Shown one piece after another: positions 2,092 to 35,010 of a stretch of DNA of 37,865 bases (its first letter is position 1; each line of letters begins with the position of its first letter). The position numbers and the translations under genes were made by a program. The notes below the pieces were generated by a model. The model saw nothing but the letters and a program-made list of their open reading frames with translations. It was not told the DNA's origin and did not search any database. This stretch comes from a virus (Duplodnaviria; Heunggongvirae; Uroviricota; Caudoviricetes): the IMG/VR virus record IMGVR_UViG_2548876954_000011; one strand, given 5' to 3'.

Positions 2092-2103
2092 TCCAATATC
2101 CTT

Positions 2104-3900: not shown

Positions 3901-3907
3901 GGTGCTT

Positions 3908-4204: not shown

Positions 4205-4299
4205 AGGATGGAACCTTTATACGTGGTGAAAAAGTACAAGAAGTGATGCGTATAAAGACATCACCTCTTGAATGTTATCGGCGAAGTATTTATCGGTAA
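4060..4299 (+). CDS. Hypothetical early protein
   Basis: 79 aa ORF with a balanced composition (MEKVQMYAAESEVVYQFRYRGESYSVPEDDLL…); position corresponds to fil/dhr-type small early genes of 186-like phages, homology not established. Confidence 0.4.
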   Translation: MEKVQMYAAESEVVYQFRYRGESYSVPEDDLLCCYPSLSGDGSYFFTLKDGTFIRGEKVQEVMRIKTSPLECYRRSIYR

Positions 4300-4538
4300 C
4301 GATCTATCAGTGTCTGTATCAGATGAGTGAATTCTTGTTGTTTAACCGAACCTAAAGGAAGTTTGTTTAATTCTTCGCGGAGGAGCTCAAAAAATGCAGA
4401 TTGATTTGCTGAGTCAGTTCGAAATAAGGAGTGGATCAGACCTGAAACAAGAATTCGTTGAACAGCAACCTCATCGCGAAGACTGGAGATCTCGTTTTCA
4501 AGTTGCTCTAAACGCTCTCTTTCAACCGGGTTCAACAT
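4290..4538 (-). CDS. Hypothetical small coiled-coil protein, antisense to the early operon
   Basis: 82 aa (MLNPVERERLEQLENEISSLRDEVAVQRILVSGLIHSL…); AGGAA-type Shine-Dalgarno about 8 nt upstream on the minus strand; AT-rich region. It overlaps a less protein-like plus-strand ORF (4394-4630). Confidence 0.4.
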   Translation of the reverse strand: MLNPVERERLEQLENEISSLRDEVAVQRILVSGLIHSLFRTDSANQSAFFELLREELNKLPLGSVKQQEFTHLIQTLIDRYR

Positions 4539-4619
4539 TGATGATTCCTTCTAGCTATCAATATGTTGGTAATGGATCATATCAAAAATTTTTTAGTAGA
4601 TGTGTTGTGGGATGCATAA

Positions 4620-4961
4620 ATGGCTATTGAAGGCGCTGCGGCGACTGTTCCATTAAGTCCCGGTGAACGCCTGAATGGACTTAATCACATAGCGGAATTA
4701 AGGGCGAAAGTATTTGGCCTGAATATTGAGTCAGAGCTTGAGCGGTTTATTAAAGATATGCGTGATCCACGGGATATCAATAATGAACAAAATAAACGGG
4801 CACTGGCTGCCATATTCTTTATGGCAAAAATTCCAGCTGAACGTCATAGCATCAGCATTAATGAGCTGACCACTGACGAAAAGCGGGAGCTGATTAAAGC
4901 AATGAATCATTTTCGTGCAGTGGTGAGCTTATTTCCCAGACGGCTAACCATGCCGAATTAA
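4620..4961 (+). CDS. Hypothetical protein
   Basis: 113 aa ORF in the AT-rich part of the early region; no recognisable motif. Confidence 0.4.
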   Translation: MAIEGAAATVPLSPGERLNGLNHIAELRAKVFGLNIESELERFIKDMRDPRDINNEQNKRALAAIFFMAKIPAERHSISINELTTDEKRELIKAMNHFRAVVSLFPRRLTMPN

Positions 4962-5028
4962 CCAACTAATGAAATTAATGGCGTAAACCCGCCGGGCATC
5001 CCTTTATCTAAATTCAGGAGAATTGATT

Positions 5029-5262
5029 ATGCGTAATATTGAAATCCTCACGACTAAAACCGGACCGGATGACGCAGGGCTTAATATTTTACTGACAGAG
5101 GCTCGTCTGGAAGAACGTCGGGCAAGGGCTGAAGCAATGGCAGCTCGCCTTGATAGCCTGGCGTGTCATATCACATCCCGCCAGCTAAACCACGTCGAAG
5201 CGGCAGAACTGCTGCGTGTAACTGCTGAAGCAATCCAGAACGAAGCGCAGGAGATCCACTAA
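5029..5262 (+). CDS. Hypothetical small early protein
   Basis: ATG at 5029 preceded by AGGAG (5016-5020); 77 aa; its stop overlaps the next start (TAATG). Confidence 0.5.
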   Translation: MRNIEILTTKTGPDDAGLNILLTEARLEERRARAEAMAARLDSLACHITSRQLNHVEAAELLRVTAEAIQNEAQEIH

Positions 5263-5489
5263 TGGCTGATGCAATGGATCTCGTACAGCAGCGCGTTGAA
5301 GAAGAACGCCAGCGCCATATCCGTGCTGCCCGTGCCAGAACGCCGGGCGTGTCTCGTGTGCTTTGCATTGAGTGTGAAGCGCCAATTCCGCCAGCACGAC
5401 GCCGCGCCATTCCGGGTGTGCAGCTTTGCATTACCTGCCAGGAAATCGCAGAGCTGAAAGGCAAACATTACAACGGAGGTGCTGTATGA
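5262..5489 (+). CDS. TraR/DksA-family C4 zinc-finger protein (P2 Orf82-like)
   Basis: 75 aa with CxxC…CxxC ([28 protein letters not shown]), typical of phage TraR-type zinc fingers. Confidence 0.7.
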
Positions 5490-5788
5490 CAAGGGCTGTG
5501 CGTATCCATCAATTAAAAATTGCACCTAAGTATTTCAACGCTGTGGTTGCAGGTCAAAAGACGGCTGAACTTCGTAAAGACGATCGTGGCTATAAAGTTG
5601 GTGATGTTCTTTCTCTTTGCGAATGGAAGCATGGCGTATTTACGGGTAGGGAATGGGCCGCTGTTATCTCTCATGTGCTTCCGGTTAATGACGTCATGGC
5701 AGTTTCAGAACAATGGGTGATGCTATCAATTCGCCCATTAACCCCATTAGAAGCTTTAGGATATGTTATTGCAGGAGGTGCTGTATGA
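5486..5788 (+). CDS. ASCH/DUF3850-like small protein
   Basis: ATG at 5486 preceded by GGAGG; 100 aa ([42 protein letters not shown]…); family recalled from memory. Confidence 0.5.
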
Positions 5789-6642
5789 GTACCATCCTGA
5801 AATGGGCGGGTAATAAAACTGCCATTATGTCCGAACTGAAAAAACATCTTCCTGCTGGCCCGCGACTGGTTGAACCTTTCGCGGGTTCCTGTGCTGTGAT
5901 GATGGAGACGGATTACCCCAGCTATCTTGTTGCGGATATTAATCCTGATTTAATCAACCTCTATAAAAAGGTTGCTGCTGATTGCGAGGCGTTTATATCT
6001 CGTGCCAGAGCTTTATTTGAGGAAGCAAACAGGGAGTTGGCTTATTACAACATAAGGCAGGAGTTTAATTACTCCACTGAAATTACTGATTTCATGAAAG
6101 CGGTATATTTCCTGTATCTCAATCGTCATGGTTACCGTGGGTTATGTCGTTATAACAAGAGCGGGCATTTCAACATTCCATACGGTAATTATAAAAATCC
6201 GTATTTCCCTGAAAAAGAAATTCGCGCATTTGCAGAGAAAGCCCAGCGAGCAACGTTTATCTGCGCCAGCTTTGATGAAACGCTGGCGATGCTGCAGGTG
6301 GGGGATGTGGTGTATTGCGATCCGCCTTATGACGGTACGTTTTCCGGCTATCACACTGACGGCTTCACTGAAGATGACCAGTATCACCTGGCATCTGTTC
6401 TTGAATATCGATCATCAGAAGGTCATCCAGTCATTGTTTCTAACAGTGACACATCCCTGATCCGTTCGCTGTATCGAAATTTCACTCACCACTACATCAA
6501 GGCAAAACGCAGCATCGGCGTGTCGGCTGGCGAGAGTAAATCTGCAACAGAAATCATCGCTGTTTCCGGGCCGCGCTGCTGGGTGGGATTTGATCCTTCG
6601 CGTGGCGTGGATAGTTCTGCCGTGTACGGAGTGCGTGCATGA
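5785..6642 (+). CDS. dam: DNA N6-adenine methyltransferase (Dam family)
   Basis: [23 protein letters not shown]…EPFAGSCAV (AdoMet motif) and [11 protein letters not shown] (DPPY catalytic motif); about 285 aa. Confidence 0.85.
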
Positions 6643-9053
6643 GCCATGCTGATATGAACAACTGCAGCGGCTTTAACGAGGCCGCCGCAGCATTCTCATG
6701 GAACAGCCCGAAAAAGGCTATTAACCCTTATCTGGACCCGGCGGAAGTTGCGCCGGTTTCTGCGCTTTCAAACCTGATCACTCTGTACGCTGCCGATAAC
6801 GAGCAGGAACAACTGCGCCGCGAGGCACTGAGTGATCAGGTCTGGGAGCGTTATTTCTTTAATGAATCCCGTGATCCTGTCCAGCGCGAAATGGAGCAGG
6901 ATAAGCTCATTAGCCGGGCAAAGTTGGCGCATGAGCAGCAGCGTTTTAACCCGGACATGGTCATTCTGGCAGACGTTAACGCCCAGCCTTCCCATATCAG
7001 CAGGCCGCTGATGCAACGTATTGAATACTTCAGCAGCCTTGGCAGGCCAAAGGCTTATTCCCGCTATTTGCGTGAGACGATTAAGCCATGTCTGGAACGG
7101 CTGGAGCATGTACGCGACAGTCAGCTATCCACTTCTTTTCGCTTTATGGCAAGCCATGAAGGGCTGGACGGCCTGCTGATTCTGCCTGAAATGAGTCAGG
7201 ATCAGGTGAAACGCCTGTCCACCCTTGTTGCTGCGCATATGAGCATGTGCCTTGATGCAGCTTGTGGCGATTTGTATGCCACCGATGACGTTAAGCCAGA
7301 AGAAATCCGCAAGACATGGGAAAAGGTGGCAGCAGAAACCCTGCGACTGGATGTCATACCGCCTGCGTTTGAGCAACTCCGCCGGAAAAGAAACCGCCGT
7401 AAACCCGTGCCCTATGAACTCATTCCGGGTTCGCTGGCGCGTATGTTGTGCGCCGACTGGTGGTACCGGAAATTATGGAAGATGCGTTGCGAATGGCGGG
7501 AAGAGCAGTTGCGTGCTGTTTGCCTGGTCAGCAAAAAAGCATCTCCCTATGTCAGCTATGAAGCCGTGATGCATAAACGTGAGCAGCGCCGTAAGTCGCT
7601 GGAGTTTTTCCGTTCTCATGAACTGGTGAACGAAGACGGCGACACGCTGGACATGGAGGATGTGGTAAACGCCAGCAGCAGCAACCCTGCGCATCGCCGC
7701 AATGAGATGATGGCCTGTGTTAAAGGTCTGGAGCTTATCGCGGAAATGCGCGGTGACTGCGCCGTTTTCTACACCATCACCTGTCCGTCACGTTTCCATT
7801 CCACGCTAAATAACGGCAGGCCCAACCCGACCTGGACAAATACGACGGTAAGACAAAGCAGTGATTATCTGGTCGGCATGTTTGCTGCATTTCGTAAGGC
7901 GATGCACAAAGCCGGATTGCGCTGGTATGGCGTGCGGGTGGCTGAGCCGCATCATGACGGTACAGTTCACTGGCACCTGTTGTGTTTTATGCGCAAAAAA
8001 GATCGCCGCACCATTACTGCTTTGTTGCGTAAGTTTGCCATTCGTGAAGACCGCGAGGAGCTGGGTAATAACACAGGACCACGCTTTAAGTCTGAGCTGA
8101 TAAACCCGCGCAAAGGTACGCCAACAAGCTACATCGCGAAATACATCAGTAAGAACATTGACGGGCGTGGTCTGGCTGGCGAGATCAGCAAGGAAACGGG
8201 TAAATCCCTGCGTGATAACGCTGAATACGTTAATGCCTGGGCGTCTCTTCATCGTGTTCAGCAATTCCGCTTCTTTGGCATTCCGGGGCGTCAGGCTTAC
8301 CGTGAACTGCGATTGCTGGCTGGTCAGGCGGCAAGGCAACAGGGGGACAAAAAAGCAGGTGCGGCGGTACTGGATAACCCACGCCTTGATGCCATCCTGG
8401 CTGCTGCTGATGCTGGTTGTTTTGCCACCTACATCATGAAGCAGGGCGGCGTACTGGTTCCCCGCAAATATCACCTCATCAGAACCGCTTATGAAATCAA
8501 CGAAGAGCCGACCGCCTATGGCGATCACGGCATTCGTATTTATGGCATCTGGTCACCCATTGCAGAGGGCAAGATCTGCACTCATGCAGTGAAGTGGAAA
8601 ATGGTTCGTAAGGCCGTTGACGTTCAGGAGGCGGCAGCCGACCAGGGCGCTTGCGCCCCTTGGACTCGTGGCAATAACTGTCCCCTTGCTGAAAATTTGA
8701 ACCAACAGGAGAAAGATAAATCAGCTGATGGGGACACCAGAACGGATATTACCCGCATGGATGACAGGGAGTTGCACGATTACCTGCACAGTATGAACAA
8801 AAAAGAGCGCCGGGAACTGGCTGCAAGGTTACGTCTGGTGAAACCGAAACGGCGTAGAGACTACAAACAGCGAATTACAGACCATCAACGACAGCAGCTC
8901 GTCTATGAACTGAAGTCCAGAGGATTTGATGGCAGCGAGAAAGAGGTCGATTTACTCCTTCGCGGCGGCAGTATTCCATCAGGAGCAGGCTTGCGTATCT
9001 TCTATCGGAACCAGCGTCTGAAGGAAGATGATAAGTGGCGGAACCTGTATTAA
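6639..9053 (+). CDS. A: Replication initiation endonuclease (P2 gpA-like rolling-circle initiator)
   Basis: 804 aa; HUH-type motif [10 protein letters not shown] (around 7963-7992) and active-site tyrosine region YIAKYISK (around 8131-8154); position after dam in the early operon. Confidence 0.9.
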
Positions 9054-9147
9054 TTACGCGGGTTAACAATTCGTGCTCTTAATAATACCAGGAATATCAG
9101 GCCGATGAACGTAAAAAAACGTTTTACATCAGTAAGATTATTATATA

Positions 9148-9163
9148 CTGTAAATATAAACAG
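9148..9163. promoter_or_regulatory. LexA box (SOS operator) overlapping a promoter for the downstream Tum/DinI-like genes
   Basis: CTGTAAATATAAACAG fits the CTGT-N8-ACAG LexA consensus exactly; TTTACA (9123-9128) and TATACT (9144-9149) give possible -35/-10 elements; sits 43 bp upstream of the ATG at 9206. Confidence 0.6.
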
Positions 9164-9205
9164 TGGTTATGTATACAGTATTGCTTTGGTGTCATAGGAG
9201 GAAAG

Positions 9206-9394
9206 ATGCAGGACTATTTTTTGGAGTCTTTGAAGCTCCAGCGCATTGATTTTTTTCTTAAGCTTGTAGCGGCTAGTGAGTGTAGTGATGAAGAGAAGGG
9301 GCTGGCTCTGCAGTGGGTTTCTGAATTAACTGATGAACTCATGGCAAAAATCAGAACCCATGAATACAACCGCTCAATGGATGTCATCAGTTGA
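9206..9394 (+). CDS. Hypothetical small protein, first gene of the SOS-controlled module
   Basis: 62 aa; AGGAGG at 9196-9201 just upstream of the ATG. Confidence 0.5.
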   Translation: MQDYFLESLKLQRIDFFLKLVAASECSDEEKGLALQWVSELTDELMAKIRTHEYNRSMDVIS

Positions 9395-9405
9395 GGTGAC
9401 TTTTT

Positions 9406-9639
9406 ATGCGCATTGAAATAATGATCGATAAAGAGCAGAAGATTAGCCAGTCTACCCTGGACGCCCTTGAATACGAGCTTTACCGCAATCTGCGCCCCCT
9501 ATATCCAAAAACGGTAATTCGCATCCGCAAAGGTAGCTCTAACGGTGTGGAACTGACCGGACTGCAACTGGACGAAGAAAGGAAGCAAGTGATGAAAATT
9601 ATGCAGAAAGTGTGGGAAGACGACAGCTGGCTGCATTAA
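9406..9639 (+). CDS. DinI-family protein (186 Tum-like antirepressor candidate)
   Basis: 77 aa, MRIEIMIDKEQKISQSTLDALEYELYRNLRPLYPKTVIRIRKG…WEDDSWLH, resembling DinI (MRIEVTI…); sits downstream of a LexA box, as tum does in 186. Confidence 0.7.
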   Translation: MRIEIMIDKEQKISQSTLDALEYELYRNLRPLYPKTVIRIRKGSSNGVELTGLQLDEERKQVMKIMQKVWEDDSWLH

Positions 9640-9772
9640 GAAACGTTGCTGGCGTCTGAACTTGCTTCTGGCGTCAGCAAGGTTGAACAACGAGCTGTGC
9701 GAGGCGTTAGCTCTGTGGTGCATGTCTATACCGCATAAGATCGCATGATTGTTTGAGGATCGTTTTTGCTCA

Positions 9773-9798
9773 GGCCCGCCAGAACTGGCGGGCTTTTG
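9773..9798 (+). terminator. Rho-independent terminator (possibly bidirectional)
   Basis: Perfect 9-bp GC-rich stem GCCCGCCAG / CTGGCGGGC with a 2-nt loop, followed by TTTT; an A/T run also lies on the other side. Confidence 0.5.
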
Positions 9799-9842
9799 CG
9801 TAGATCATGCAGGTGCATGAAAACCACTACATAAAGCGGGCA

Positions 9843-9861
9843 GGCGTGGCGGGGATACGAG
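9843..9861. other. Putative cos (cohesive end) site
   Basis: GGCGTGGCGGGGATACGAG resembles my recollection of the 186/P2 19-nt cohesive ends (GGCGTGGCGGGGAAAGCAT / GGCGAGGCGGGGAAAGCAC), 13 of the first 13 nt matching 186; recalled, not verified. Confidence 0.3.
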
Positions 9862-9889
9862 CGCGCGCTGAAAAGGTTTAGCTAAATTT

Positions 9890-9919
9890 TTGTCGATAGG
9901 TAGTTTTAGTTGTTATACA
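9890..9919 (+). promoter_or_regulatory. Putative sigma70 promoter for the ATPase/protease cassette
   Basis: TTGTCG, 17-nt spacer, then TTATAC/TATACA, inside a very AT-rich T-tract region upstream of the ATG at 10053. Confidence 0.3.
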
Positions 9920-10052
9920 AAAGTGTCACTGGTTTTGTTTTGAGCATTTGTGGTGCTAAAAATATTTTTTTTGGTTCAAAATTACCTTAAAAAGGTTTTT
10001 TTGGTGTATGATTGTTTGAAAAGTGGTTCAGTTTTGCCATAAGGGTGGTTAG

Positions 10053-11135
10053 ATGATAAACGTTACAAACGAAATGCTCATTGATGTTGTCAGTGATGCT
10101 CTTACCGGGAAGAGGGAAAGTCTCCTCATGCGGTTGCGGATTATGGCAAAAAAACTAAAAAAAGAATCTCCTGAATTAGCGGGTAAATTAGAAGATTTAC
10201 TTATTAATACAGGTGGCGCAATTGCAGTCGAAAGGGCTAATCCAGTTGTTCCTAAAATAACACCTGTTGATGCGGATACAAGACAAAAGCTGCTAGTTGA
10301 AACATATCCTGTGGTCATTGATGTTGAACCTGTTTGGCCAACAAAAACTGATGTTCAACTGAATCGATTTGTGGCTGAGTGGGAAATGAAAGAACGCCTT
10401 TATAAAGAAGGGTTGCATCCGTCCAAATCTCTTCTTATGGGAGGACCACCCGGTGTGGGGAAGACTTTGGCTGCAAAGTGGCTCGCTTTTAAACTCGATA
10501 TGCCATTGTTAACATTAGATCTCGCAAGTGTAATGAGTAGCTACTTGGGGAAAACGGGTAATAATATTAAGGCAGTCCTCAATTATGCTTCGTCATTCCC
10601 TTGTGTACTGCTTCTTGACGAATTTGATGCGATTGCTAAAAAAAGGGATGATGCAACAGATGTTGGAGAACTAAAAAGATTAGTTACAGTATTATTGCAA
10701 GCAATTGATGAATGGCCAAATACGTCTGTTCTTATAGCAGCAACTAACCATGCGGAGCTGCTTGATCCTGCTGCATGGAGAAGATTCGATCGAGTTATTG
10801 ATTTTGAATATCCAACACAAGACCTAATGAGAAGATATCTCTGTTCTAAAAATATTGGAGATAGCTTATCGTACTATATTGCTACAAAACTCGAAAAAGT
10901 TTCATATGCAGTTCTTGAGAGAGCTATAAATCAAGCTAAAAGAAATGCCATTATAGAAGATATTCCTTTAAGTTCAGCTTTAATTGATGAGTTGTTAGAT
11001 GGCGTGTCACTTGATGATGTTATAAAAAACATGTCAAACAACAATGTATCACAAAGAAAAATCGCTTTAGATTTGGGGATTTCAAGGTCACAAGTACGTA
11101 AGGTTTTGACGGTTGAGGATGAAGACAATGAATGA
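10053..11135 (+). CDS. AAA+ ATPase (IetA-like), first gene of the cargo cassette
   Basis: 360 aa; Walker A GGPPGVGKT (around 10440-10466), Walker B LLLDEFD (around 10610-10630); C-terminal HTH-like segment SQRKIALDLGISRSQVRKVL; AT-rich; stop overlaps the protease start (ATGAATGA). Confidence 0.85.
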   Translation: MINVTNEMLIDVVSDALTGKRESLLMRLRIMAKKLKKESPELAGKLEDLLINTGGAIAVERANPVVPKITPVDADTRQKLLVETYPVVIDVEPVWPTKTDVQLNRFVAEWEMKERLYKEGLHPSKSLLMGGPPGVGKTLAAKWLAFKLDMPLLTLDLASVMSSYLGKTGNNIKAVLNYASSFPCVLLLDEFDAIAKKRDDATDVGELKRLVTVLLQAIDEWPNTSVLIAATNHAELLDPAAWRRFDRVIDFEYPTQDLMRRYLCSKNIGDSLSYYIATKLEKVSYAVLERAINQAKRNAIIEDIPLSSALIDELLDGVSLDDVIKNMSNNNVSQRKIALDLGISRSQVRKVLTVEDEDNE

Positions 11136-13320
11136 TAAAAATATGCTTCTTGGCTATGGTGAAACACTAACTAACCCTGTTAAACTTAACAGAGGTGGAG
11201 GTGAAAAGAATAAACCTTACTCTTATTCAGAAAATAAACCAGTGATATCTGCTCAACTGGAAGAGTTGATTGAGGAAATTAATACCCTTCCATTGTTAGC
11301 AATGCCTGAAGGTAAGGCTGTAGCAAAATTTGTTTTGCATCCGGCATTCTTAGCAAAAAGTTATTTTCCAGTAAGTCTTTTTGAGCGATTTTCCCTAGAA
11401 AGCATAGGCAGTAAGGCTGTAAAAGTAAAACCTAGAAAAGATATTAAAAAAAGAGGGCGAAAAGAGGAATACACTACAGCGTGTATTTATGTTTCTGGCA
11501 AAAAAGAAAGTTTTCAATCATTCTTAGACTCTGTAAATCAAGATACCCTAACGAAAGGGCAGCAAAATGATTTTGTCACCTTAGAAAATATTTCAATACT
11601 GGAAGTTTCAGATAAAGTAAAAACGATTAATAGCAATGAAGTTATGAGTATTGAGGTCGCCTTACATACTCCTGATACAAGTTCCTCTATTGTCGATAGT
11701 TTTGAAGTTTTTGCTTCGCAAAATGGTGCTGTTATAGATAAGGCAAGAAGTATAAAGGTTAAGGGGCTAACCTTTATGCCTATTAAGGCTAGTAAAGATG
11801 TAGCTTTAAAAGTTGCAGAGTTTTCATTTCTCAGGACTTTGAGAGAACTTCCTGAATTAAGGCTAAGTGAGCCTGTTATATCACGTTCTGTGATTCAAAC
11901 ATCTAACCTTAGTTTACCATCTGAAGGAGCGGTAAACCCACATATAAAGGTTGCCATATTCGATGGTGGATTGGGGATCGATGATTTCAATCCTTGGGTA
12001 ACAGAGTACACTTTCAACGGTAATGCTAGTACTAATGCAAAACTTCTTTCTCATGGACAAGATGTCACCTCTACTGTGTTATTTGGTGTTCTTGGCTCTG
12101 AAACGGAAAAATTAAGTGTTCCTTATTGTAATATTGACCATTATCGTGTACTGGATTCCAATGTTAATAACTCAGATGTCGATCTTTTTGACGTTCTGAT
12201 CCGTATTAAAAGTGTATTAGAACAAAAAAAATATGATTATATCAATCTGAGCTTAGGACCTAGATTACCTGTTGATGACGATGACGTGCATGTGTGGACC
12301 TCAACTCTTGAGGAGATACTTGCATCAGGAGAAACACTTTGTACTGTCGCGGTTGGAAATGATGGTCAGCTGCCTGCCAAGTTAAATCGAATTCAACCAC
12401 CTGCTGATTTAGTTAATGGTCTGTCAGTAGGTGCAGCAACCTCTTTATCTGATAGTTGGGAAAGATGTTCTTACAGTTGTATTGGTCCTGGACGAAGCCC
12501 TGGCTTTGTGAAGCCTGATGGAGTTGCATTTGGAGGACATTCTGATGAGCCATTCCAGGTATACAGCCCTATGGTTAATGGTCTTGCCCGCACTGCGGGG
12601 ACTAGCTTTTCAGCTCCATTAGTCCTGAGGCAAGCAATCGCGTTAAGTGCTTCTCTAAATTACAACATTACACCACTTACGGCTAAAGCTCTGCTTATAC
12701 ATCATGCGGAGAGCAATAATATCAATCGTGCTGAAGTTGGTTGGGGACGATTTCCTCATGATCTTAGTGAAGTAATATTTTGTGATGATGATGAAGTTAA
12801 AGTTATATATCAAGGTACTTTAAAACCATCACAACACATGCGAGCACCTATTCCGTTTCCAGATGTACCTATGCGTGGATGTGTAAATTTAAGAGCGACA
12901 TTCTGCTTTTCCAGTCCTGTAGATGCGGAACATCCTTTGAATTATACAAGAAGCGGTCTAGAAGTAACCATGAGAAAAGGTGTTTCAGATAGTTCCGGGT
13001 TAACGTTTCCTCTTTTTAATCTAAAAAATGTTTATGCAGATGAAAATGAGCAACGTGTTGATGCACATAAATGGGAGACTACGTTAAGAAGTGAACACAA
13101 ATTTAAACCGAATGAGCTGACAAACCCATGCTTTGATATTATCTACTATGGTAGAGACTGTGGTATGCCTATTGATGTTGACGAGTTAGAAGAACTACCA
13201 TATGTTCTTGTCGTGACTTTATCTGCTGAAGAAATGCCGGATTTATATAACCTAATTAGGCAGAAATATCAAACCTTACAGCCTATACAAGTTCAACAGC
13301 AAATTATGTTACGTACTTAA
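11128..13320 (+). CDS. Subtilisin-like serine protease (peptidase S8 family, IetS-like), probably cytoplasmic
   Basis: 730 aa from the ATG at 11128 (GAGGA about 9 nt upstream; in-frame alternatives at 11113 and 11119); S8 catalytic motifs in the right order: D in VAIFDGGLG (codon 11962-11964), H in LSHGQDV (12052-12054), oxyanion N in AVGNDGQ, S in AGTSFSAP (12604-12606); no N-terminal signal peptide evident. Confidence 0.85.
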   Translation: MNDKNMLLGYGETLTNPVKLNRGGGEKNKPYSYSENKPVISAQLEELIEEINTLPLLAMPEGKAVAKFVLHPAFLAKSYFPVSLFERFSLESIGSKAVKVKPRKDIKKRGRKEEYTTACIYVSGKKESFQSFLDSVNQDTLTKGQQNDFVTLENISILEVSDKVKTINSNEVMSIEVALHTPDTSSSIVDSFEVFASQNGAVIDKARSIKVKGLTFMPIKASKDVALKVAEFSFLRTLRELPELRLSEPVISRSVIQTSNLSLPSEGAVNPHIKVAIFDGGLGIDDFNPWVTEYTFNGNASTNAKLLSHGQDVTSTVLFGVLGSETEKLSVPYCNIDHYRVLDSNVNNSDVDLFDVLIRIKSVLEQKKYDYINLSLGPRLPVDDDDVHVWTSTLEEILASGETLCTVAVGNDGQLPAKLNRIQPPADLVNGLSVGAATSLSDSWERCSYSCIGPGRSPGFVKPDGVAFGGHSDEPFQVYSPMVNGLARTAGTSFSAPLVLRQAIALSASLNYNITPLTAKALLIHHAESNNINRAEVGWGRFPHDLSEVIFCDDDEVKVIYQGTLKPSQHMRAPIPFPDVPMRGCVNLRATFCFSSPVDAEHPLNYTRSGLEVTMRKGVSDSSGLTFPLFNLKNVYADENEQRVDAHKWETTLRSEHKFKPNELTNPCFDIIYYGRDCGMPIDVDELEELPYVLVVTLSAEEMPDLYNLIRQKYQTLQPIQVQQQIMLRT

Positions 13321-19645: not shown

Positions 19646-19861
19646 ATGACGCTTGAGCGAATCAGCGCCTTTATCACGTATTGCATCGCCGTTGTGCTGG
19701 CCTGGCTGGGCGATTTGTCCATCAAGGATGCCTCAACGCTGGGCGGCCTGATGATCGGTGTGCTGATGCTGGCTATCAACTGGTACTACAAACACAAAGC
19801 CTACCAGCTTCTGCGCGACGGGCAGATCTCGCGGGAGGACTATGAATCCATCAATCGTTAA
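19646..19861 (+). CDS. Small two-TMD holin (pinholin-like)
   Basis: 71 aa with two hydrophobic helices (ISAFITYCIAVVLAWLG; LGGLMIGVLMLAINWYY) and a charged C-terminus; immediately upstream of the endolysin. Confidence 0.6.
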   Translation: MTLERISAFITYCIAVVLAWLGDLSIKDASTLGGLMIGVLMLAINWYYKHKAYQLLRDGQISREDYESINR

Positions 19862-20357
19862 ACGCTGCCTTGTCGGGGCTGTGCTGGCTATTGCTGCCAC
19901 GCTGCCGGGTTTTCAGCAACTTCACACCTCCGTGGAGGGGCTGAAACTGATTGCCGATTACGAAGGCTGTCGTCTGCAGCCGTATCAGTGCAGCGCGGGT
20001 GTCTGGACCGACGGCATTGGTAATACATCTGGCGTCATTCCAGGCAAAACTATTACGGAACGACAGGCAGCGGAAGGGCTGATCTCCAACGTGCTACGTG
20101 TGGAGCGGGCGCTGGAAAGATGTGTGAAGCAACAGCCGCCGCAGAAGGTGTATGACTCGGTGGTGTCGTTTGCCTTCAACGTGGGAACGGGCAATGCCTG
20201 CAGTTCCACACTGGTGAAATTACTCAATCAGCGGCGCTGGGCAGATGCGTGCCGACAGTTGCCGCGCTGGGTGTATGTAAAAGGTGTTTTTAATCAGGGG
20301 CTGGATAACCGCCGTGCGCGGGAGATGGCCTGGTGCCTTAAAGGAGCTGGACTATGA
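19842..20357 (+). CDS. Endolysin (phage lysozyme) with an N-terminal SAR-like hydrophobic segment
   Basis: 171 aa; N-terminal CLVGAVLAIAATLPGF followed by a lysozyme-like core (…LIADYEGCRLQPYQCSAGVWTDGIGNT…). Confidence 0.8.
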   Translation: MNPSIVKRCLVGAVLAIAATLPGFQQLHTSVEGLKLIADYEGCRLQPYQCSAGVWTDGIGNTSGVIPGKTITERQAAEGLISNVLRVERALERCVKQQPPQKVYDSVVSFAFNVGTGNACSSTLVKLLNQRRWADACRQLPRWVYVKGVFNQGLDNRRAREMAWCLKGAGL

Positions 20358-20782
20358 CGCGTGCGCTGGCAGTAGTGGTGGCGCTGATACTCGTTGCGCT
20401 GGGCTGGCAGTCGTGGCGGCTTAACAGCGCCAGCCACACCATCGAAACGCAGCGCGCGGCGCTAGAAAGTAAAGCGCAGGAACTAACGAAGAAAAATAGC
20501 CAGTTGATCAGTCTGTCCATTCTGGCTGAAACCAACAACCGGGAGCAGGCGCGGCTCTATGCCGAATCAGAACAGACCAGCGCGCTGCTGAGACAACGAC
20601 AACACCGGATCGAGGAACTGAAACGTGAGAACGAGGATTTACGCCGCTGGGCTGATATTCCTTTGCCTACTGACATTATCCGGCTGCGGGAACGTCCGAC
20701 ACTCACCGGAGGTGCAGCTTACCGTCAGTGGTTGTCCGCGAGTGACGCCGTGTCGGCTGGATCAGGCAACGCCGCGCACTAA
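20354..20782 (+). CDS. i-spanin (Rz / P2 LysB-like)
   Basis: 142 aa; N-terminal TMD (ALAVVVALILVALGW) followed by coiled coil; AAGGAG at 20341-20346. Confidence 0.7.
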   Translation: MTRALAVVVALILVALGWQSWRLNSASHTIETQRAALESKAQELTKKNSQLISLSILAETNNREQARLYAESEQTSALLRQRQHRIEELKRENEDLRRWADIPLPTDIIRLRERPTLTGGAAYRQWLSASDAVSAGSGNAAH

Positions 20783-27154: not shown

Positions 27155-27721
27155 ATGCTTATTGGCTATGTACGCGTGTCAACAAATGACCAGAACACCG
27201 ATTTGCAACGTAATGCACTGAACTGCGCGGGATGTGAGCGGATTTTTGAGGACAAAATCAGTGGCACTAAGTCCGACAGACCGGGGCTGAAAAAACTACT
27301 CAGGACACTATCGGCAGGAGACACGCTGGTTGTCTGGAAGCTGGACAGGTTGGGGCGCAGTATGCGACATCTTGTTACGCTGATAGAAGAGTTGCGCCAG
27401 CGTGGTGTGAATTTCAGAAGCCTGACTGACAGTATTGATACCAGTACCCCAATGGGCCGTTTCTTTTTTCATGTCATGGGTGCCCTGGCTGAAATGGAAC
27501 GCGAACTGATAGTTGAACGTACCAGGGCAGGGCTGGCTGCAGCTCGTGCCAAAGGCAGAGTAGGTGGACGCCGTCCTAAGTTGACCACCGAACAGTGGGC
27601 ACAGATTGGGCGTTTACTCGAGGCCGGAGAATCAAGACAGCGTATTGCACTGATTTTTGATGTAGGCGTTTCTACCATTTATAGAAAATTTCCGGCAAAT
27701 AAGATCAATGAATCCCCCTGA
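27155..27721 (+). CDS. Serine DNA invertase (Gin/Hin/Cin/Pin family)
   Basis: MLIGYVRVSTNDQNTDLQRNAL… is near-identical to my recollection of the Mu Gin N-terminus; catalytic Ser in YVRVST; C-terminal HTH; adjacent to the invertible fibre segment. Confidence 0.9.
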   Translation: MLIGYVRVSTNDQNTDLQRNALNCAGCERIFEDKISGTKSDRPGLKKLLRTLSAGDTLVVWKLDRLGRSMRHLVTLIEELRQRGVNFRSLTDSIDTSTPMGRFFFHVMGALAEMERELIVERTRAGLAAARAKGRVGGRRPKLTTEQWAQIGRLLEAGESRQRIALIFDVGVSTIYRKFPANKINESP

Positions 27722-27863: not shown

Positions 27864-29036
27864 ATGGCTCAGGATTACCACCACGGGGTGCGCGTTGTTG
27901 AAGTCAACGAAGGCACCCGATCTATTACCACGGTGAGCACCGCCATCGTGGGTATGGTCTGCACGGGCGATGATGCCGATGCAAAAATGTTTCCTCTTAA
28001 TAAACCCGTGCTGATCACTGATGTGCTGACTGCCAGCGGTAAAGCGGGTGAGTCAGGTACTCTGGCCCGTTCGCTGGATGCCATCGCTGACCAGGCAAAA
28101 CCCGTGACCATTGTTGTGCGTGTGCCGCAGGGTGAAACGGAAGACGAAACCACGACCAATATCATCGGCGCAGTGACTGCTGAAGGTAAAAAAACAGGTA
28201 TGAAAGCCCTGTTATCTGCCCAGTCACAGCTCGGCGTTAAACCGCGCATTCTCGGCGTGCCAGGCCACGACACCAAGGCGGTAGCTACTGAGTTGCTGAG
28301 CGTGGCGCAAAGCCTGCGTGGATTTGCTTACCTGTCAGCGTATGGCTGCAAGACAGTGCAGGAGGCGATCACTTACCGCGAAAACTTCAGCCAGCGCGAA
28401 GGGATGCTGATCTGGCCTGACTTTACTGGCTGGGACACGGTGCTGAATGCCGAAGCAACGGCATATGCTACCGCCCGTGCGCTTGGTCTGCGCGCCAAAA
28501 TTGACGAGCAGACCGGATGGCACAAAAGCCTGTCCAATGTGGGCGTGAACGGTGTCACCGGAATTTCTGCAGATGTGTTCTGGGATCTGCAGGACCCGGC
28601 AACCGATGCAGGTCTGCTGAACCAGAACGACGTCACCACGCTTGTGCGTAAAGACGGTTTCCGCTTCTGGGGTTCCCGCTGCCTGAGTGATGACCCGCTC
28701 TTTGCCTTCGAAAACTACACCCGCACGGCGCAGGTGCTGATGGACACGATGGCAGAAGCACACATGTGGGCGGTGGATAAACCGCTTAACCCGTCGCTGG
28801 CCCGCGACATTATCGAAGGTATCCGCGCCAAAATGCGCAACCTGGTCAGTCAGGGCTATCTCATTGGTGGTGATTGCTGGCTGGACGAGTCGGTGAACGA
28901 CAAAGACACGCTTAAAGCCGGAAAACTCACCATCGACTACGACTACACGCCAGTGCCGCCACTTGAAAATCTGATGCTGCGCCAGCGCATCACCGATCAG
29001 TACCTGGTGAATTTCGCCAGCCAGGTCAGCGCGTAA
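27864..29036 (+). CDS. FI: Tail sheath protein (P2 gpFI-like)
   Basis: 390 aa (P2 FI is about 396 aa); first gene of the tail operon. Confidence 0.9.
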
Positions 29037-29045
29037 GGGGACAAC

Positions 29046-29561
29046 ATGGCTTTACCACGTAAATTAAAACATCTGAACTTGTTTAACGACGGGAACAACT
29101 GGCAGGGGATCGTTGAGTCGCTGACGCTGCCGAAATTCACCCGCAAATATGAGAAGTATCGCGGCGGCGGTATGCCGGGGGCGGTGGATGTGGATCTGGG
29201 ACTGGATGACAGTGCACTGGATACAGAATTTTCCATTGGTGGTACTGAACTGCTGCTGTTTAAGCAGATGGGCAAATCCACGGTGGATGGCATCCAGCTG
29301 CGCTTTACCGGCTCTATCCAGCGTGACGATACCGGGGAAGTGCAGGCCGTGGAGCTTGTCGTGCGTGGACGTCACAAAGAAGTGGATTCCGGCGAGTGGA
29401 AGACGGGCGAAAGCAACACCACCAAAGTGACCAGTACCAACAGCTACGCGAAGCTGACCATCAATGGTGAGGTGCTCTATGAAGTGGACCTTATCAACAT
29501 GGTGGAAATTGTGGACGGTGTGGACCTGATGGAAGCGCACCGCAACGCCCTCGGCCTCTGA
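29046..29561 (+). CDS. FII: Tail tube protein (P2 gpFII-like)
   Basis: 171 aa (P2 FII is about 172 aa). Confidence 0.9.
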   Translation: MALPRKLKHLNLFNDGNNWQGIVESLTLPKFTRKYEKYRGGGMPGAVDVDLGLDDSALDTEFSIGGTELLLFKQMGKSTVDGIQLRFTGSIQRDDTGEVQAVELVVRGRHKEVDSGEWKTGESNTTKVTSTNSYAKLTINGEVLYEVDLINMVEIVDGVDLMEAHRNALGL

Positions 29562-29615: not shown

Positions 29616-29918
29616 ATGAGCGATAAACAGACTGAAAAGACCATTCAACTGGATACCCCCATCATGCGCGGTAAAACAGAAATTACCGAAATTGTGTTGC
29701 GTAAACCGCAGTCTGGTGCGCTGCGCGGCACACGCCTGCAGGCCATTATGGATATGGATGTGAACGCGATGATGACCGTGATCCCCCGCATCTCCAGTCC
29801 GGCACTGACTGCACAGGAAATCGCAGAGATGGACCCGGCAGATCTCACAGCCATGTCGGTTGAGGTTGTCACTTTTTTGTTGAAGAAGTCGGTGCTTGCC
29901 GGTTTACCGACAGCCTGA
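29616..29918 (+). CDS. E: Tail assembly chaperone (P2 gpE-like)
   Basis: 100 aa immediately upstream of the tape-measure gene; contains the slippery site. Confidence 0.8.
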   Translation: MSDKQTEKTIQLDTPIMRGKTEITEIVLRKPQSGALRGTRLQAIMDMDVNAMMTVIPRISSPALTAQEIAEMDPADLTAMSVEVVTFLLKKSVLAGLPTA

Positions 29919-30052
29919 CGGTTGACGATCTGGTGGCAGATATCGCCACCATTTTTCACTGGCCGCCATCCGTTACTGACGTTATGCCGCTGACCGAAGT
30001 GCTGGAATGGCGGTATAAAGCGATTCAGAGAAGCGGGGCCAACGATGAGTGA
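29616..30052 (+). CDS. gpE+E' -1 frameshift extension product (tail assembly chaperone, long form)
   Basis: Slippery heptamer TTTTTTG at 29874-29880; the -1 frame stays open to a TGA at 30050-30052 (…FFVEEVGACRFTDSLTVDDLVADIATIFHWPPSVTDVMPLTEVLEWRYKAIQRSGANDE), overlapping the T start; this is the conserved E/E' (lambda G/GT-like) arrangement. Confidence 0.55.
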
Positions 30053-33000
30053 TAACAACCTGCGTCTGCAGGTCATTCTTAATGCGGTTGACAAGCTCAC
30101 CCGCCCATTTCGATCTGCGCAGGCCAGTTCAAGAGAACTGGCTGCTGCTGTCAAAAAATCCCGCGATGCAATAAAGCAGCTTGATCAGGCCGGGAGCAGT
30201 CTGGACAGCTTCCGAAAGCTGCAGGCAGAAAATCAGAAATTAGGCGACAGGCTGAACTATGCCCGCCAGCGTGCAAATTTGCTCAGTCAGGAACTGGGAG
30301 CGATGGGGCCGCCTTCGCAACGTCAGGTTGTTGCTCTGGGCCGTCAACGGCTGGCTGTTCAGCGCCTGGAAGAACGCCAGAAAAAGCTGCAGCAGCAGAC
30401 GGCGCTTGTGCGTGCTGAACTGTACCGGGCGGGAATTTCTGCGAAAGACGATGCGGGAGCAACTGCCCGTTTAGCCCGTGAAACATCACGTTATAACCAG
30501 GAACTTTCGAAACAGGAGGCGCGGCTGAAGCGACTGGGGGAAGCTCAGCGCAGGATGAATGCAGCGCGTGCCAGTTATGCCCGTTCGCTGGAGGTGCGTG
30601 ATCGTATTGCAGGTGCCGGAGCCACCACCACGGCTGCAGGGCTGGCAATGGGTGCGCCAGTGATGGCGGCAGTAAAAAGCTATACCAGCATGGAAGATGC
30701 CATGAAAGGTGTGGCAAAGCAGGTCAATGGTCTGCGTGACGATAATGGCAACCGCACTGCACGTTTTTATGAAATGCAGGATGCCATCAAGGCTGCCAGC
30801 GAATAGTTGCCGATGGAAAACGGTGCGGTGGACTTCGCTGCACTGGTTGAAGGTGGTGCGCGCATGAACGTCGCAAACCCTGACGACAGCTGGGAAGATC
30901 AGAAACGTGACCTGCTGGCCTTCGCCAGTACGGCAGCAAAGGCGGCAACAGCCTTTGAGCTGCCAGCGGATGAACTGTCAGAAAGTCTGGGGAAAATCGC
31001 CCAGCTCTACAAAATCCCCACCCGCAATATTGAACAGCTCGGTGATGCGCTGAACTATCTGGATGATAACGCCATGTCGAAAGGGGCAGACATCATTGAT
31101 GTGATGCAACGTCTGGGCGGTGTGGCTGACCGTCTGGATTATCGTAAAGCGGCGGCGCTGGGTTCCACCTTCCTGACACTGGGCGCTGCGCCAGAGGTTG
31201 CAGCCAGTGCAGCAAACGCGATGGTGCGTGAATTGTCCATTGCCACCATGCAAAGCAAGAGTTTCTTTGAAGGGATGAATCTGCTGAAACTCAATCCTGA
31301 AGTGATTGAAAAGCAGATGACGAAGGATGCGATGGGAACCATCCAGCGCGTGCTGGAGAAGGTAAACGCGCTGCCGCAGGACAAGCGCCTGTCTGCCATG
31401 ACTATGTTGTTTGGTAAAGAGTTTGGCGATGACGCGGCGAAACTGGCAAACAACCTGCCGGAACTGCAGCGTCAGTTAAAACTGACAGCGGGCAATGATG
31501 CGCTCGGCTCCATGCAGAAAGAATCCGACATTAACAAGGATTCACTTTCTGCGCAGTGGTTGCTGGTCAAAACCGGAGCGCAGAACACCTTCAGCAGCCT
31601 GGGCGAAACGCTGCGCCAGCCGCTGATGGATATTCTGTACACGGTGAAAAGCGTCACGGGGGCGTTGCGTCGCTGGGTGGAAGCTAACCCGGAACTGACA
31701 GGCACACTGATGAAAGCATCGGCTGTTGTGGCTGCGGTTACCGTCGGCCTCGGCACCTTAGCGGTGGCGCTGGCTGCAGTGCTGGGGCCGCTGGCAGTGA
31801 TCCGTCTGGGATTCTCTGTGTTGGGTATCAAAACGTTATCTTCCGTTACGGCAGCAGTAACTCGAACCAGCAGCGCGTTGTCCTGGCTGGCTGGCGCGCC
31901 ACTGGCACTGCTGCGACGCGGGCTTGCTTCATCGGGCAACGCCGCAGGTTTACTTACTGCGCCGTTGTCGTCTTTGCGCCGCACGGCATCACTGACGGGA
32001 AATGTCCTGAAAACTGTAGCAGGTGCGCCGGTTGCACTTTTGCGGTCTGGATTATCCGGTTTACGTGCTGTTGCTGTGATGTTTATGAATCCTCTGGCGG
32101 TACTGCGCGGTGGACTGGCCGCCGCAGGCACGGTGCTGCGAGTACTGGCATCTGGTCCACTGGCGATGCTGCGCGTTGCCCTGTATGCCATATCTGGTCT
32201 GTTAGGTGCTCTGCTCAGTCCGATAGGTCTTGTGGTTACTGCACTGGCGGGCGTGGCGCTGGTTGTCTGGAAATACTGGCAACCCATCACCGCATTTCTC
32301 GGTGGCGTGGTGGAAGGATTCAAAGCGGCGGCAGGTCCCATCAGTGCAGCGTTCGAACCGCTTAAGCCCGTGTTCCAGTGGATTGGCGACAAAGTGCAGG
32401 CGCTGTGGGGCTGGTTTACTGATCTGCTGACGCCCGTTAAGTCGACCTCTGCCGAACTGCAGAGCGCAGCGGCAATGGGGCGACGATTCGGGGAGGCACT
32501 GGCAGAAGGGCTGAATATGGTCATGCATCCGCTGGACTCCCTGAAATCCGGCGTTTCCTGGTTGCTGGAGAAACTCGGCATTGTCAGTAAAGAGGCTGCA
32601 AAGGCGAAACTGCCGGAAAGCGTGACGCGTCAGCAACCTGCGACGGTGAATGCAGACGGTAAAGTGATGATGCCATCGGGTGATTTTCCGTCATGGGGAT
32701 ATGGCTTTGCGGGGATGTATGACAGCGGCGGCTATATCCCGCGCGGGCAGTTTGGCATCGTCGGTGAAAACGGGCCGGAAATTGTTAACGGCCCGGCAAA
32801 CGTGACCAGCCGGAGAAATACAGCTGCACTGGCTGCCGTTGTCGCCGGAATGATGGGTGTTGCTGCCGCGCCAGCAGAGCTTCCACCGTTGCATCCTTTG
32901 GCGCTTCCCGCAAAAGGCGGTGAAGCGATGGTGAGTCGTGCAGCTACTGTGCCGCCCATTTACCGGATTGAAGCACCGACGCAGATCATCATCCAGACAC

Positions 33001-33122
33001 AGCCAGGACAAAGTGCGCAGGATATTGCGCGGGAGGTGGCCCGCCAGCTTGATGAACGTGAACGCAGGCTGAAGGCAAAAGCCAGGAGTAACTACAGCGA
33101 TCAGGGGGGATACGACGCATGA
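30045..33122 (+). pseudogene. T: Tail tape-measure protein (P2 gpT-like) interrupted by an in-frame TAG at 30804-30806
   Basis: ORFs 30045-30806 and 30807-33122 are in the same frame, separated only by TAG (…DAIKAASE*LPMENGAVDF…); together about 1025 codons with tape-measure features (N-terminal coiled coil, long Ala/Gly/Leu-rich helical repeats). Could be a nonsense mutation, a sequencing error or suppressor-dependent readthrough. Confidence 0.5.
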
Positions 33123-33604
33123 TGATGGTGCTGGGATTGTACGTGTTTATGCTGCGCACCGTGCCGTATCAGGAGCTGCAGTATCAACGCAGCTGGCGAC
33201 ATGCGGCAAACAGCCGGGTAAACCGACGTCCGTCCACGCAGTTTCTGGGACCGGACAACGACATGCTGACGCTTTCCGGTGTTCTTATGCCGGAGATAAC
33301 AGGTGGCAGGCTGTCGTTGCTGGCACTGGAGCAGATGGCAGAACAGGGGAAAGCATGGCCCCTGATTGAAGGCAGTGGCACGATTTATGGCATGTATGTG
33401 ATTGAGGGACTGAATCAGACTAAAACGGAGTTTTTCCGCGACGGTATGCCGCGCCGGATTGAGTTCACCCTGTCGCTCAAACGGGTGGATGAATCCCTGT
33501 CCGATATATTCGGTGATCTCAGTGCGCAACTGAATAATCTGCAGGACACAGCAACGTCTGCCTTAAGCGATATCAGTAAAACGGTGGGAGGGCTGCTGTC
33601 ATGA
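33119..33604 (+). CDS. U: Tail protein U (P2 gpU-like)
   Basis: 161 aa (P2 U is about 159 aa); overlaps the T stop. Confidence 0.85.
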   Translation: MMMVLGLYVFMLRTVPYQELQYQRSWRHAANSRVNRRPSTQFLGPDNDMLTLSGVLMPEITGGRLSLLALEQMAEQGKAWPLIEGSGTIYGMYVIEGLNQTKTEFFRDGMPRRIEFTLSLKRVDESLSDIFGDLSAQLNNLQDTATSALSDISKTVGGLLS

Positions 33605-34701
33605 ATTTCAGCTCTGAACTGCTTAACAAAGGCAACAAAACTCCCGCATTCAGCATCAGTATTGAGGGCAGGGATATCACCACTGTGCTGGATAACCGCC
33701 TGATGAGTTTGACGCTGACGGACAATCGGGGCTTTGAAGCGGACCAGCTTGATCTGGAGCTGGACGACGCCGACGGAAAAATCGTGCTGCCGCGCCGTGG
33801 TGCGGTTATTACGCTGGCGCTGGGCTGGAAGGGGCAGCCGCTTTTCCCGAAAGGGGCATTCACGGTGGACGAGATTGAACACACTGGCGCACCGGACCGC
33901 CTGACTATCCGGGCGCGAAGTGCTGATTTTCGTGAAACGCTGAATACCCGCCGTGAAAAGTCGTGGCACAAGACCACCGTCGGGGAAGTGGTGAAGGAAA
34001 TAGCTGTGCGGCACAAACTGAAGATGGCATTGGGTAAAGACCTGTCAGATAAACCCGTGGAACATATAGACCAGACCAATGAGAGTGACGGCAGTTTTCT
34101 GATGCGGCTGGCGCGCCAGTACGGTGCTATTGCGTCGGTGAAAAATGGCAATCTGTTATTCATCCGGCAGGGACAGGGTAAAAGCGCCAGCGGTAAACCA
34201 CTACCGGTTATCACTATCACACGTAAGGACGGCGACAGTCACCGCTTTACCCTGGCAGATCGCGGAGCCTACACGGGCGTAATTGCCAGCTGGTTGCATA
34301 CCCGCGAACCCGCGAAGAATGAAAGCACCACGGTGAAGCGTAAGCGCAGGACTAAGAAGCAGAAGAAAGAGCCGGAAGCGAAGCAGGGCGATTACCTGGT
34401 GGGTACAGATGAAAACGTGCTGGTACTTAATCGCACCTATGCCAACCGGAGCAACGCCGAACGGGCGGCGAAAATGCAGTGGGAACGCCTGCAACGCGGC
34501 GTTGCGTCATTCTCGCTACAACTGGCAGAAGGTCGGGCAGATCTCTACACGGAAATGCCAGTGAAAGTCAGTGGCTTTAAACAGCCGATAGATGATGCGG
34601 AATGGACCATTACGACTCTGACGCATACCGTCAGCCCCGATAACGGTTTTACAACCAGTCTGGAGCTTGAAGTGAGGATTGATGATTTCGAAATGGAATG
34701 A
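33601..34701 (+). CDS. D: Tail protein D (P2 gpD-like)
   Basis: 366 aa; last structural gene before ogr. Confidence 0.85.
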   Translation: MNFSSELLNKGNKTPAFSISIEGRDITTVLDNRLMSLTLTDNRGFEADQLDLELDDADGKIVLPRRGAVITLALGWKGQPLFPKGAFTVDEIEHTGAPDRLTIRARSADFRETLNTRREKSWHKTTVGEVVKEIAVRHKLKMALGKDLSDKPVEHIDQTNESDGSFLMRLARQYGAIASVKNGNLLFIRQGQGKSASGKPLPVITITRKDGDSHRFTLADRGAYTGVIASWLHTREPAKNESTTVKRKRRTKKQKKEPEAKQGDYLVGTDENVLVLNRTYANRSNAERAAKMQWERLQRGVASFSLQLAEGRADLYTEMPVKVSGFKQPIDDAEWTITTLTHTVSPDNGFTTSLELEVRIDDFEME

Positions 34702-34791: not shown

Positions 34792-35010
34792 ATGATGATT
34801 TGCCCACTGTGTGGAAGTGCCGCCCATACTCGCAGCAGTTTTCAGGTATCTTCATTGACCAAAGAGCGTTACAACCAGTGCCAGAACATTAACTGCAGCC
34901 ATACTTTTGTTACCCATGAAACTTTTGTTCGTTCGATTGCAACGCCAAAAGAGTCAAATCCGGTTCAGCCGCATCCAATGAAATCAGGACAGGTGGCGCT
35001 CTCTCTTTGA
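34792..35010 (+). CDS. ogr: Late gene transcriptional activator, zinc-finger (P2 Ogr / 186 B-like)
   Basis: 72 aa from the ATG at 34792; CPLCGSAAH…CQNINCSH zinc-binding motif, resembling P2 Ogr (…CPLCQHAAH…CQNVNCS…). Confidence 0.8.
   Translation: MMICPLCGSAAHTRSSFQVSSLTKERYNQCQNINCSHTFVTHETFVRSIATPKESNPVQPHPMKSGQVALSL

Follow-up and report, generated by a model that had tools for sequence, protein, structure and literature searches.

A naturally occurring amber codon in the tail tape measure gene of an otherwise intact P2/186-family prophage of Escherichia coli

An in-frame stop codon inside the gene for a phage tail tape measure raises the question of whether the stop is real, whether translation gets past it, and what has become of the phage that carries it. 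We examined this question for a prophage contained in a stretch of 37,865 nucleotides of viral DNA, the whole of which is referred to here as the window. A first-pass annotation had noted that a single TAG splits the tape measure gene and had proposed that an otherwise intact prophage would be tail-defective unless the codon is suppressed, and could be regarded as cryptic or domesticated. Sequencing error and context-dependent readthrough were named as alternatives, a comparison with the tape measure genes of close relatives was suggested, and two findings were named that would speak against a broken gene, namely a sense codon on resequencing or the occurrence in relatives of two separate genes with a ribosome-binding site and start codon at the junction. 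We therefore compared the locus with its relatives, established the distribution of the allele among independently assembled samples and their host flanks, and evaluated the signals through which expression of the interrupted gene might be restored.

The prophage and its interrupted gene T

The window contains a P2/186-family prophage that extends from the integrase gene (1-1032, minus strand) through ogr (34792-35010), is integrated beside ybjL and is followed by the host genes ybjL, ybjM and grxA. The genes of its tail cluster are arranged in the order FI-FII-E-E'-T-U-D, which matches the order in P2, and the neighbours of T have 99-100% amino acid identity to annotated homologues (Table 1). 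At the TTTTTTG that begins at 29873, the -1 frame runs into a 39-aa E' segment with 100% identity to a protein annotated as a member of the GpE family. Also encoded in the prophage are a Dam methylase, a tail-fibre invertase that is active and the intact defence pair IetAS; in one relative (L006) an IS1 element lies in the dam gene.

Table 1. Amber codon, interrupted gene T and neighbouring tail genes, with coordinates in the window.
Feature	Coordinates	Strand	Basis
Amber codon TAG in place of CAG (Gln254), one C>T transition at 30804	30804..30806	+	Five CAG relatives (L001-L005) compared with the window and 7 samples (L007-L012, L016-L019)
Gene T, P2 gpT-type tail tape measure, 1,025 codons, broken at codon 254	30045..33122	+	Length and position match annotated 3,078-nt CDSs
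N-terminal truncation ORF, 253 aa, ~27 kDa; the sole product sure to be made	30045..30806	+	ORF call
Remaining C-terminal ORF, of 769 aa if begun at ATG 30813 and 771 aa if begun at TTG 30807	30813..33122	+	Gene call of 769 aa in carriers
Tail sheath FI (27864-29036) and tail tube FII (29046-29561), intact	27864..29561	+	Annotated homologues
Tail assembly chaperones E (29616-29918) and E' (-1 frame, ends 30052), T6G slippery site 29873-29879, intact	29616..30052	+	P2 record annotates the homologous E/E+E' frameshift
Tail genes U (33119-33604) and D (33601-34701), intact, 3' of the TAG	33119..34701	+	100% aa identity to annotated gpU and gpD homologues

In the window sequence the TAG at 30804-30806 is in frame with the open reading frame 30045-30806 and stands in the codon context GCC AGC GAA TAG TTG CCG ATG GAA. 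Past the TAG the frame of T remains open until a TAA at 33120-33122, with potential start codons at 30807 (TTG) and 30813 (ATG). When joined, the two parts form a frame of 1,025 codons with one internal stop, which confirms the split that the first-pass annotation had described. The joined frame is collinear with an annotated 1,025-aa 'phage tail tape measure protein', to which it has 99.4% amino acid identity in a full-length tblastn alignment that is interrupted by one stop.

Domain and homology searches place both parts of the frame within one type of protein. The Pfam domain PF10145 (PhageMin_Tail) spans amino acids 246-457 of the T protein of an intact relative (E = 2e-18) and is also recognized in the C-terminal fragment of the window's T (E = 3e-19); the TAG falls 8 residues into this domain and not at a domain boundary. 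A BLASTP comparison of T with gpT of P2 gave collinear matches in the C-terminal region (E = 2e-38) and the N-terminal region (1e-19), and residues 4-178 of T from the intact relative L001 are homologous to residues 3-177 of P2 gpT. Because PF10145 is present and the similarity to P2 gpT is collinear at both ends, we assign the gene to the gpT type of tape measure. The length of the 769-aa remnant, which is close to that of the 815-aa P2 gpT, suggested that the N-terminal fragment might be a lineage-specific extension; this was ruled out, as P2 gpT aligns from residue 3 and the break lies inside PF10145. A Pfam match of the N-terminal fragment to Mis12 was weak and below the cut-off, and was set aside as a coiled-coil artefact.

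The remainder of the prophage was assessed by aligning to the window 47 proteins (44 phage, 3 host) of two annotated relatives. A stop was encountered only in T, and 41 of the 47 proteins align over their full length; the shortfalls concern the C-termini of the integrase and CI, the last residue of the lysozyme, and the variable tail-fibre proteins (H, tfa and an alternative fibre). No deletion or IS insertion was found in the window's prophage, and the aligned proteins revealed no stop or frameshift in genes other than T. Together with the sense codon present in every relative read (see below), this supports the earlier description of an amber nonsense codon in an otherwise intact prophage. 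T is the longest gene of the prophage, with 9.3% of its coding nucleotides, and offers the largest single target for nonsense hits by G:C>A:T changes, with 9.6% of all such paths; on both counts it is the most probable gene for a first nonsense hit.

Codon 254 in relatives and the descent of the TAG allele

Four annotated relatives encode the tape measure in a single CDS of 3,078 nt, the same length as the joined frame of the window, and codon 254 is CAG (Gln) in all five relatives that were read at the nucleotide level (L001-L005). The comparison with close relatives that had been suggested at the outset thereby returned a sense codon. The CAG relatives reach down to 94.6% identity and include Klebsiella phages. 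Among named phages, Escherichia phage 500465-1 (Wadgaonvirus) comes nearest to the window's T with 98.9% identity, and Klebsiella phage 4LV2017 is next with 94.6%; intact orthologues of 3,078 nt with the same neighbours occur in these two phages (NC_049342 and NC_047818, respectively) and in ~900 E. coli prophages, at 94.6-99.9% nucleotide identity. From the nearest intact allele, that of L001, the window's T differs only at the amber codon and by K113E, the latter being private to L001. As the frame is one collinear unit, and the relatives have a CDS of equal length with CAG at this codon, we conclude that a single gene was hit by one C>T change and that these are not two open reading frames adjacent by chance. 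In four of the five CAG relatives the 30 nt on either side of the codon match the window exactly, so that nothing has co-evolved with the stop; in the fifth, a single synonymous change lies three bases upstream.

A stop shared by diverged relatives is a hallmark of recoding sites, and this was not observed among the relatives, the TAG being confined to one clone. Nor did any of them show a two-gene split with a ribosome-binding site at the junction, the arrangement that would have spoken against a broken gene; they have one continuous CDS. A 61-nt probe centred on the codon found matches in 913 records of complete E. coli genomes and in 32 phage records; none was exact, so that none of these records contains the 61-mer that bears the TAG. 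A TAG-bearing 41-mer likewise had no match among GTDB species representatives, a result that is uninformative because the carrier clone is not a species representative. Since the relatives have one gene with CAG and the TAG had no match in the collections, the stop is neither a conserved site of recoding nor the junction of a naturally split gene. The locus is not a member of either class, the defining features of which were tested for and found to be absent.

The absence of the 61-mer at first pointed to an error or a private allele, an interpretation that was overturned by an exact-protein look-up. The exact 253-aa product is called as a gene on 24 contigs (44 index blocks), of which ~23 are true TAG carriers, and in almost all contigs matched it is followed by a separately called 769-aa open reading frame. 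At the nucleotide level the TAG was confirmed in seven independently assembled samples from different pipelines. These comprise four isolate assemblies at NCBI (GCA_007647075.1, GCA_976941965.1, GCA_017117405.1 and GCA_001266195.1), an ENA metagenome (ERZ27246628) and Logan assemblies of the SRA runs SRR10127160 and ERR13952768. With these samples standing in for resequencing, each was seen to have TAG and not a sense codon at this position. One of the samples differs from the window only by five indels of the kind typical of long-read noise, and it retains the TAG. A further record, CP183678.1, was considered as an eighth carrier and rejected; it represents a different prophage, with 55 mismatches in 3.7 kb, in which the start of the record cuts the gene after codon 253. 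The TAG is a real, heritable allele.

The carriers are closely related in both phage and host sequence. Over 7,911 positions of the tail region they show 0-3 differences from the window, compared with 53 for a CAG relative, and all carriers whose contigs include host flank are integrated at one site at ybjL. Three carriers with long host flanks (L016, L017 and L019) are mutually identical over 5,490 nt (0 differences) and identical to the window over its 2,855 nt of flank, compared with 50 differences in 2,855 host positions for a non-carrier lysogen at the same ybjL site. The nearest matches to this flank, at 99.7-99.8%, come from B2-type strains, E2348/69 and ST95 being examples. No clone-mate with a 100% match to the host flank is present among 5,426 complete E. 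coli genomes, which is why this collection missed the TAG allele. Within the carriers, a sub-branch of two samples shares the derived changes A429V in T (31330) and K132Q in D (33994), both of them nonsynonymous, at positions where all outgroups have the state of the window. As these changes arose on the TAG background, the allele has been transmitted for long enough to accumulate further change. The TAG has a single origin, in a prophage that one E. coli clone already carried, and its inheritance since then has been vertical. Among the carriers examined, which represent one clone with one integration site and identical host flanks, nothing indicates that the prophage spread horizontally once the mutation had occurred. 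The other phage genes checked are full length across all carriers examined, which may mean that the event is too recent for further decay or that these genes are still under some selection; the observation fits both alike.

Error, readthrough and reinitiation as explanations of the stop

The surroundings of the junction contain little that would favour expression of the downstream part. No promoter or terminator was found near the junction, and no tRNA gene is present in the 37.9-kb window. The RNA 3' of the TAG shows no unusual structure (for the fold of 30795-30900, z = -1.29, with 19 of 200 shuffles at least as stable), and the base that follows the UAG is U. No Shine-Dalgarno sequence precedes TTG 30807 or ATG 30813, for which the anti-Shine-Dalgarno duplexes amount to -3.0 and -0.5 kcal/mol, respectively, whereas 30 real gene starts have a median of -6.9. 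An internal promoter or ribosome-binding site that makes a second gene was considered and rejected, there being neither a promoter-like site nor a Shine-Dalgarno sequence. As it lacks a ribosome-binding site, the C-terminal remnant would be translatable only through termination-reinitiation or readthrough. In systems of programmed readthrough, such as that which yields the read-through protein of the Q-beta coat, an in-frame stop likewise lies within a longer conserved frame; such sites are conserved among relatives and usually combine a leaky stop with a stimulatory context. The stop in the window, in contrast, is private to one clone and is followed by U and by unremarkable RNA. Context-dependent readthrough, one of the alternatives put forward in the first-pass annotation, consequently finds no support in either the conservation of the stop or the structure downstream of it.

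The alternatives to a disabling mutation differ in how much of this evidence they can accommodate. A sequencing or assembly error, with CAG as the true codon, would explain why the TAG allele is absent from 5,426 complete E. coli genomes and the phage collection, but it would have to have been made identically in seven independently sequenced samples held at NCBI, ENA and Logan, among them a metagenome and an assembly with long-read-type indels. Because of this recurrence an error is excluded for practical purposes, and we assign it a negligible probability; the phylogenetic substructure among the carriers also argues against it, as does the position of the TAG outside any homopolymer and outside Dam (GATC) and Dcm (CCWGG) motifs. 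A functional split gene, in which reinitiation at TTG 30807 or ATG 30813 yields pieces of 253 and ~769 aa that together support tails, perhaps shorter ones, is very improbable. The two start codons do lie 0 and 6 nt after the TAG, gene callers recognize the 769-aa frame in carriers, and reinitiation could relieve polarity. The arrangement is, however, absent from every relative examined, is served by the weak duplexes described above, and breaks the protein 8 residues inside PF10145. Conservation of the first 175 residues reaches even to P2 gpT, so that they are not a dispensable extension, and a tape measure acts as one continuous ruler, as in the case of lambda gpH and T4 gp29. Termination-reinitiation is most efficient at very short spacings and can take place without strong secondary structure (PMC12548453).

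A leaky or conditionally suppressed amber codon we consider unlikely, although several observations would suit it. Full-length T might be supplied by a near-cognate Gln-tRNA, by a supE-like suppressor of the host (glnV, anticodon CUA) or, in trans, by a co-resident P2-like prophage; few copies of the tape measure suffice per tail, all other genes of the prophage are intact, and it is common for an E. coli genome to contain two or more prophages of this P2/186 family, at up to five places per genome. Efficient amber suppression favours a 3' purine, but the base here is U, no stimulatory structure follows it, and the window provides no tRNA gene. The confinement of the carriers to one clone and one site, with identical host flanks, also fits poorly with a phage that still spreads horizontally, and the two nonsynonymous tail-gene changes on the TAG background are consistent with relaxed constraint, tiny as their number is. 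Near-cognate decoding of UAG in E. coli has been documented to insert Gln, Tyr, Trp, Lys and Glu (PMC4333366), and since the ancestral residue is Gln, insertion of Gln would yield a wild-type tape measure.

With these alternatives weighed, we hold it to be highly probable that the locus records a spontaneous CAG to TAG nonsense mutation of single origin that has been inherited vertically and has left a prophage probably unable to build tails. The mutation itself, its reality, its single origin and vertical inheritance, and the intactness of the other genes are matters of observation. The tail-defective phenotype is probable by analogy with P2, in the record of which T is annotated as 'essential tail protein; putative tail length determinator', and in view of what tape measures generally do. 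The earlier claim that the prophage would be tail-defective unless suppressed is thus in keeping with the evidence, with the phenotype itself predicted from these comparisons.

Consequences for the prophage, its host and its annotation

The course of events that best fits these observations would begin with one C>T transition in a resident prophage, creating an amber codon at Gln254 of an essential gene. Translation would normally end after 253 residues, leaving little or no full-length tape measure of 1,025 aa, and the TAG may possibly exert polarity that lowers the expression of the downstream genes U and D. On induction, the prophage would presumably still excise, replicate, package and lyse, its remaining genes being intact. 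In cells without a tape measure the assembly of tails of defined length would be expected to fail, such that few or no infectious particles would be released. A phage of this kind would be unable to spread and would be inherited only vertically, a mode of inheritance that matches the pattern seen in the carrier population.

The closest known counterparts are the laboratory amber (sus) mutants of P2 gene T, in which the amber codon likewise lies in the homologous tape measure gene, at the same place of the operon after the E/E+E' pair, and for which the corresponding phenotype would be the lack of functional tails unless suppressed. The allele described here differs from them in being natural and in residing in the prophage of a wild E. 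coli clone, whereas those of P2 came from mutagenised laboratory stock. The phages also belong to different genera, that of the window being closest to Wadgaonvirus, and their T proteins differ in length (1,025 aa compared with 815 aa in P2) and are similar only at the termini, with 28% and 44% identity. The window's allele can be viewed as the equivalent in nature of the classical amber mutations in tail genes of phages. With defective, cryptic or 'grounded' prophages it shares the inactivation of one essential morphogenetic gene by a point mutation and vertical inheritance; it is set apart by its very early stage, with a single lesion. In a survey of in-frame stops in prokaryotic genes, such stops were most enriched in the phage and transposon category and were mainly read as pseudogenisation (PMC7918605). 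A literature search on premature stops in connection with prophages and tape measures retrieved stops in other genes.

On the best reading, a prophage intact in other respects has taken its first visible lesion with the TAG, which represents early prophage decay, or 'grounding'. Of the two terms proposed in the first-pass annotation, a recently disabled and vertically inherited element is what the data describe; 'domesticated' exceeds them, as nothing in them points to the defect having been selected for. In mechanism nothing is new, this being the ordinary first step of prophage pseudogenisation, and the importance of the case lies mainly in annotation and curation, with no new biology implied. 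Tools that score prophage completeness would rate the element as intact, yet its tails are very probably not made. Exact-sequence look-ups over independent assemblies also proved of value as a method, in that they separate real nonsense alleles from errors without recourse to reads.

It is distinctly unlikely that the amber allele is other than null, with Gln decoding and/or reinitiation at the TTG or ATG sustaining a natural 'sus' phage that persists in a wild clone. Were that so, the prophage would be a low-output or conditionally infectious phage, the virions of which depend on translational fidelity, a suppressor tRNA or a helper prophage. As an early stage of decay, the locus provides a clean and datable case of the first inactivating hit on a prophage, consisting of one substitution in an identifiable clone. 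The host may retain the benefits of the element, given the IetAS pair, the Dam methylase and the invertase aboard, while the phage itself would no longer spread.

Changes on the amber background and an invertible tail-fibre segment

Two derived nonsynonymous changes, A429V in the tape measure gene T (window 31330) and K132Q in the tail gene D (window 33994), are common to isolate GCA_017117405.1 and metagenome contig ERZ27246628, both of which carry the same amber-bearing prophage (loci L009/L017 and L010/L018). These changes arose on the TAG background and are compatible with relaxed constraint on the tail genes, but are far too few for a test of it. The prophage also contains an invertible segment encoding alternative fibre C-termini and assembly chaperones, bounded by an inverted repeat with the core TTGGTTT(A/G)GGAGAAG. 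Because this segment lies in the opposite orientation to that of the window in the clone-mate GCA_007647075.1 (L016/L007), the Din-family invertase must be active in the TAG-bearing clone.

One apparent carrier was rejected. CP183678.1 (L013/L020, record positions 1-10759) holds another, distinct member of this prophage family (98.5% identity), in which the tape measure gene is broken off precisely behind codon 253 because the 5.19-Mb record begins at that point. The 'partial' protein left by this cut is identical to the truncated T product of the window, and exact-sequence look-ups therefore list the record falsely as a carrier.

Comparison with related prophages

The immunity region (window 1114-3048) is unlike the version found in relatives, and the CI repressor has just 61% identity with that of the relative L006. 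Between the integrase and CI genes, the position occupied in L006 by HEPN and GmrSD genes holds a 325-aa ORF with no family match in Pfam or PADLOC, which may represent an uncharacterised cargo gene. The integrase is also shorter than the 350-aa protein of L006, with the final ~11 residues unaligned. The first base of the window falls exactly at the integrase stop codon, and attL and the left host junction therefore lie outside the window.

Features of the prophage by window position
Feature	Position	Strand	Description
Integrase	1-1032	minus	343 aa
Coiled-coil-like ORF	1114-2091	minus	325 aa; between int and CI
186-type CI repressor	2104-3048	minus	PF07022 + PF16452
Dam methylase	5713-6642		309 aa; PF02086; intact
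IetA, AAA ATPase	10053-11135		PADLOC E = 7e-84
IetS, S8 peptidase	11128-13320		PADLOC E = 2e-48
Invertible tail-fibre segment	25286-27090		1,805 bp; imperfect inverted repeat at both ends
Din-family invertase	27155-27721

A LysA-like gene (DNZ54_00345 family) sits between the lysozyme and lysB genes in the relatives L005 and L006 and, in comparison with these, is missing from the window (window 20348-20357 compared with L005 1856-2233), where the lysozyme gene (19842-20357) abuts lysB (20354-20782). The Dam methylase gene of L006 (7463-9097) is interrupted by IS1A, which is an independent case of decay within the same prophage family.

Defence cargo

The IetA/IetS defence pair (10053-13320) is placed between a DinI-like gene and the portal gene Q, and both proteins are 100% identical to the L006 copies. 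The defence cargo is still intact in the disabled prophage.
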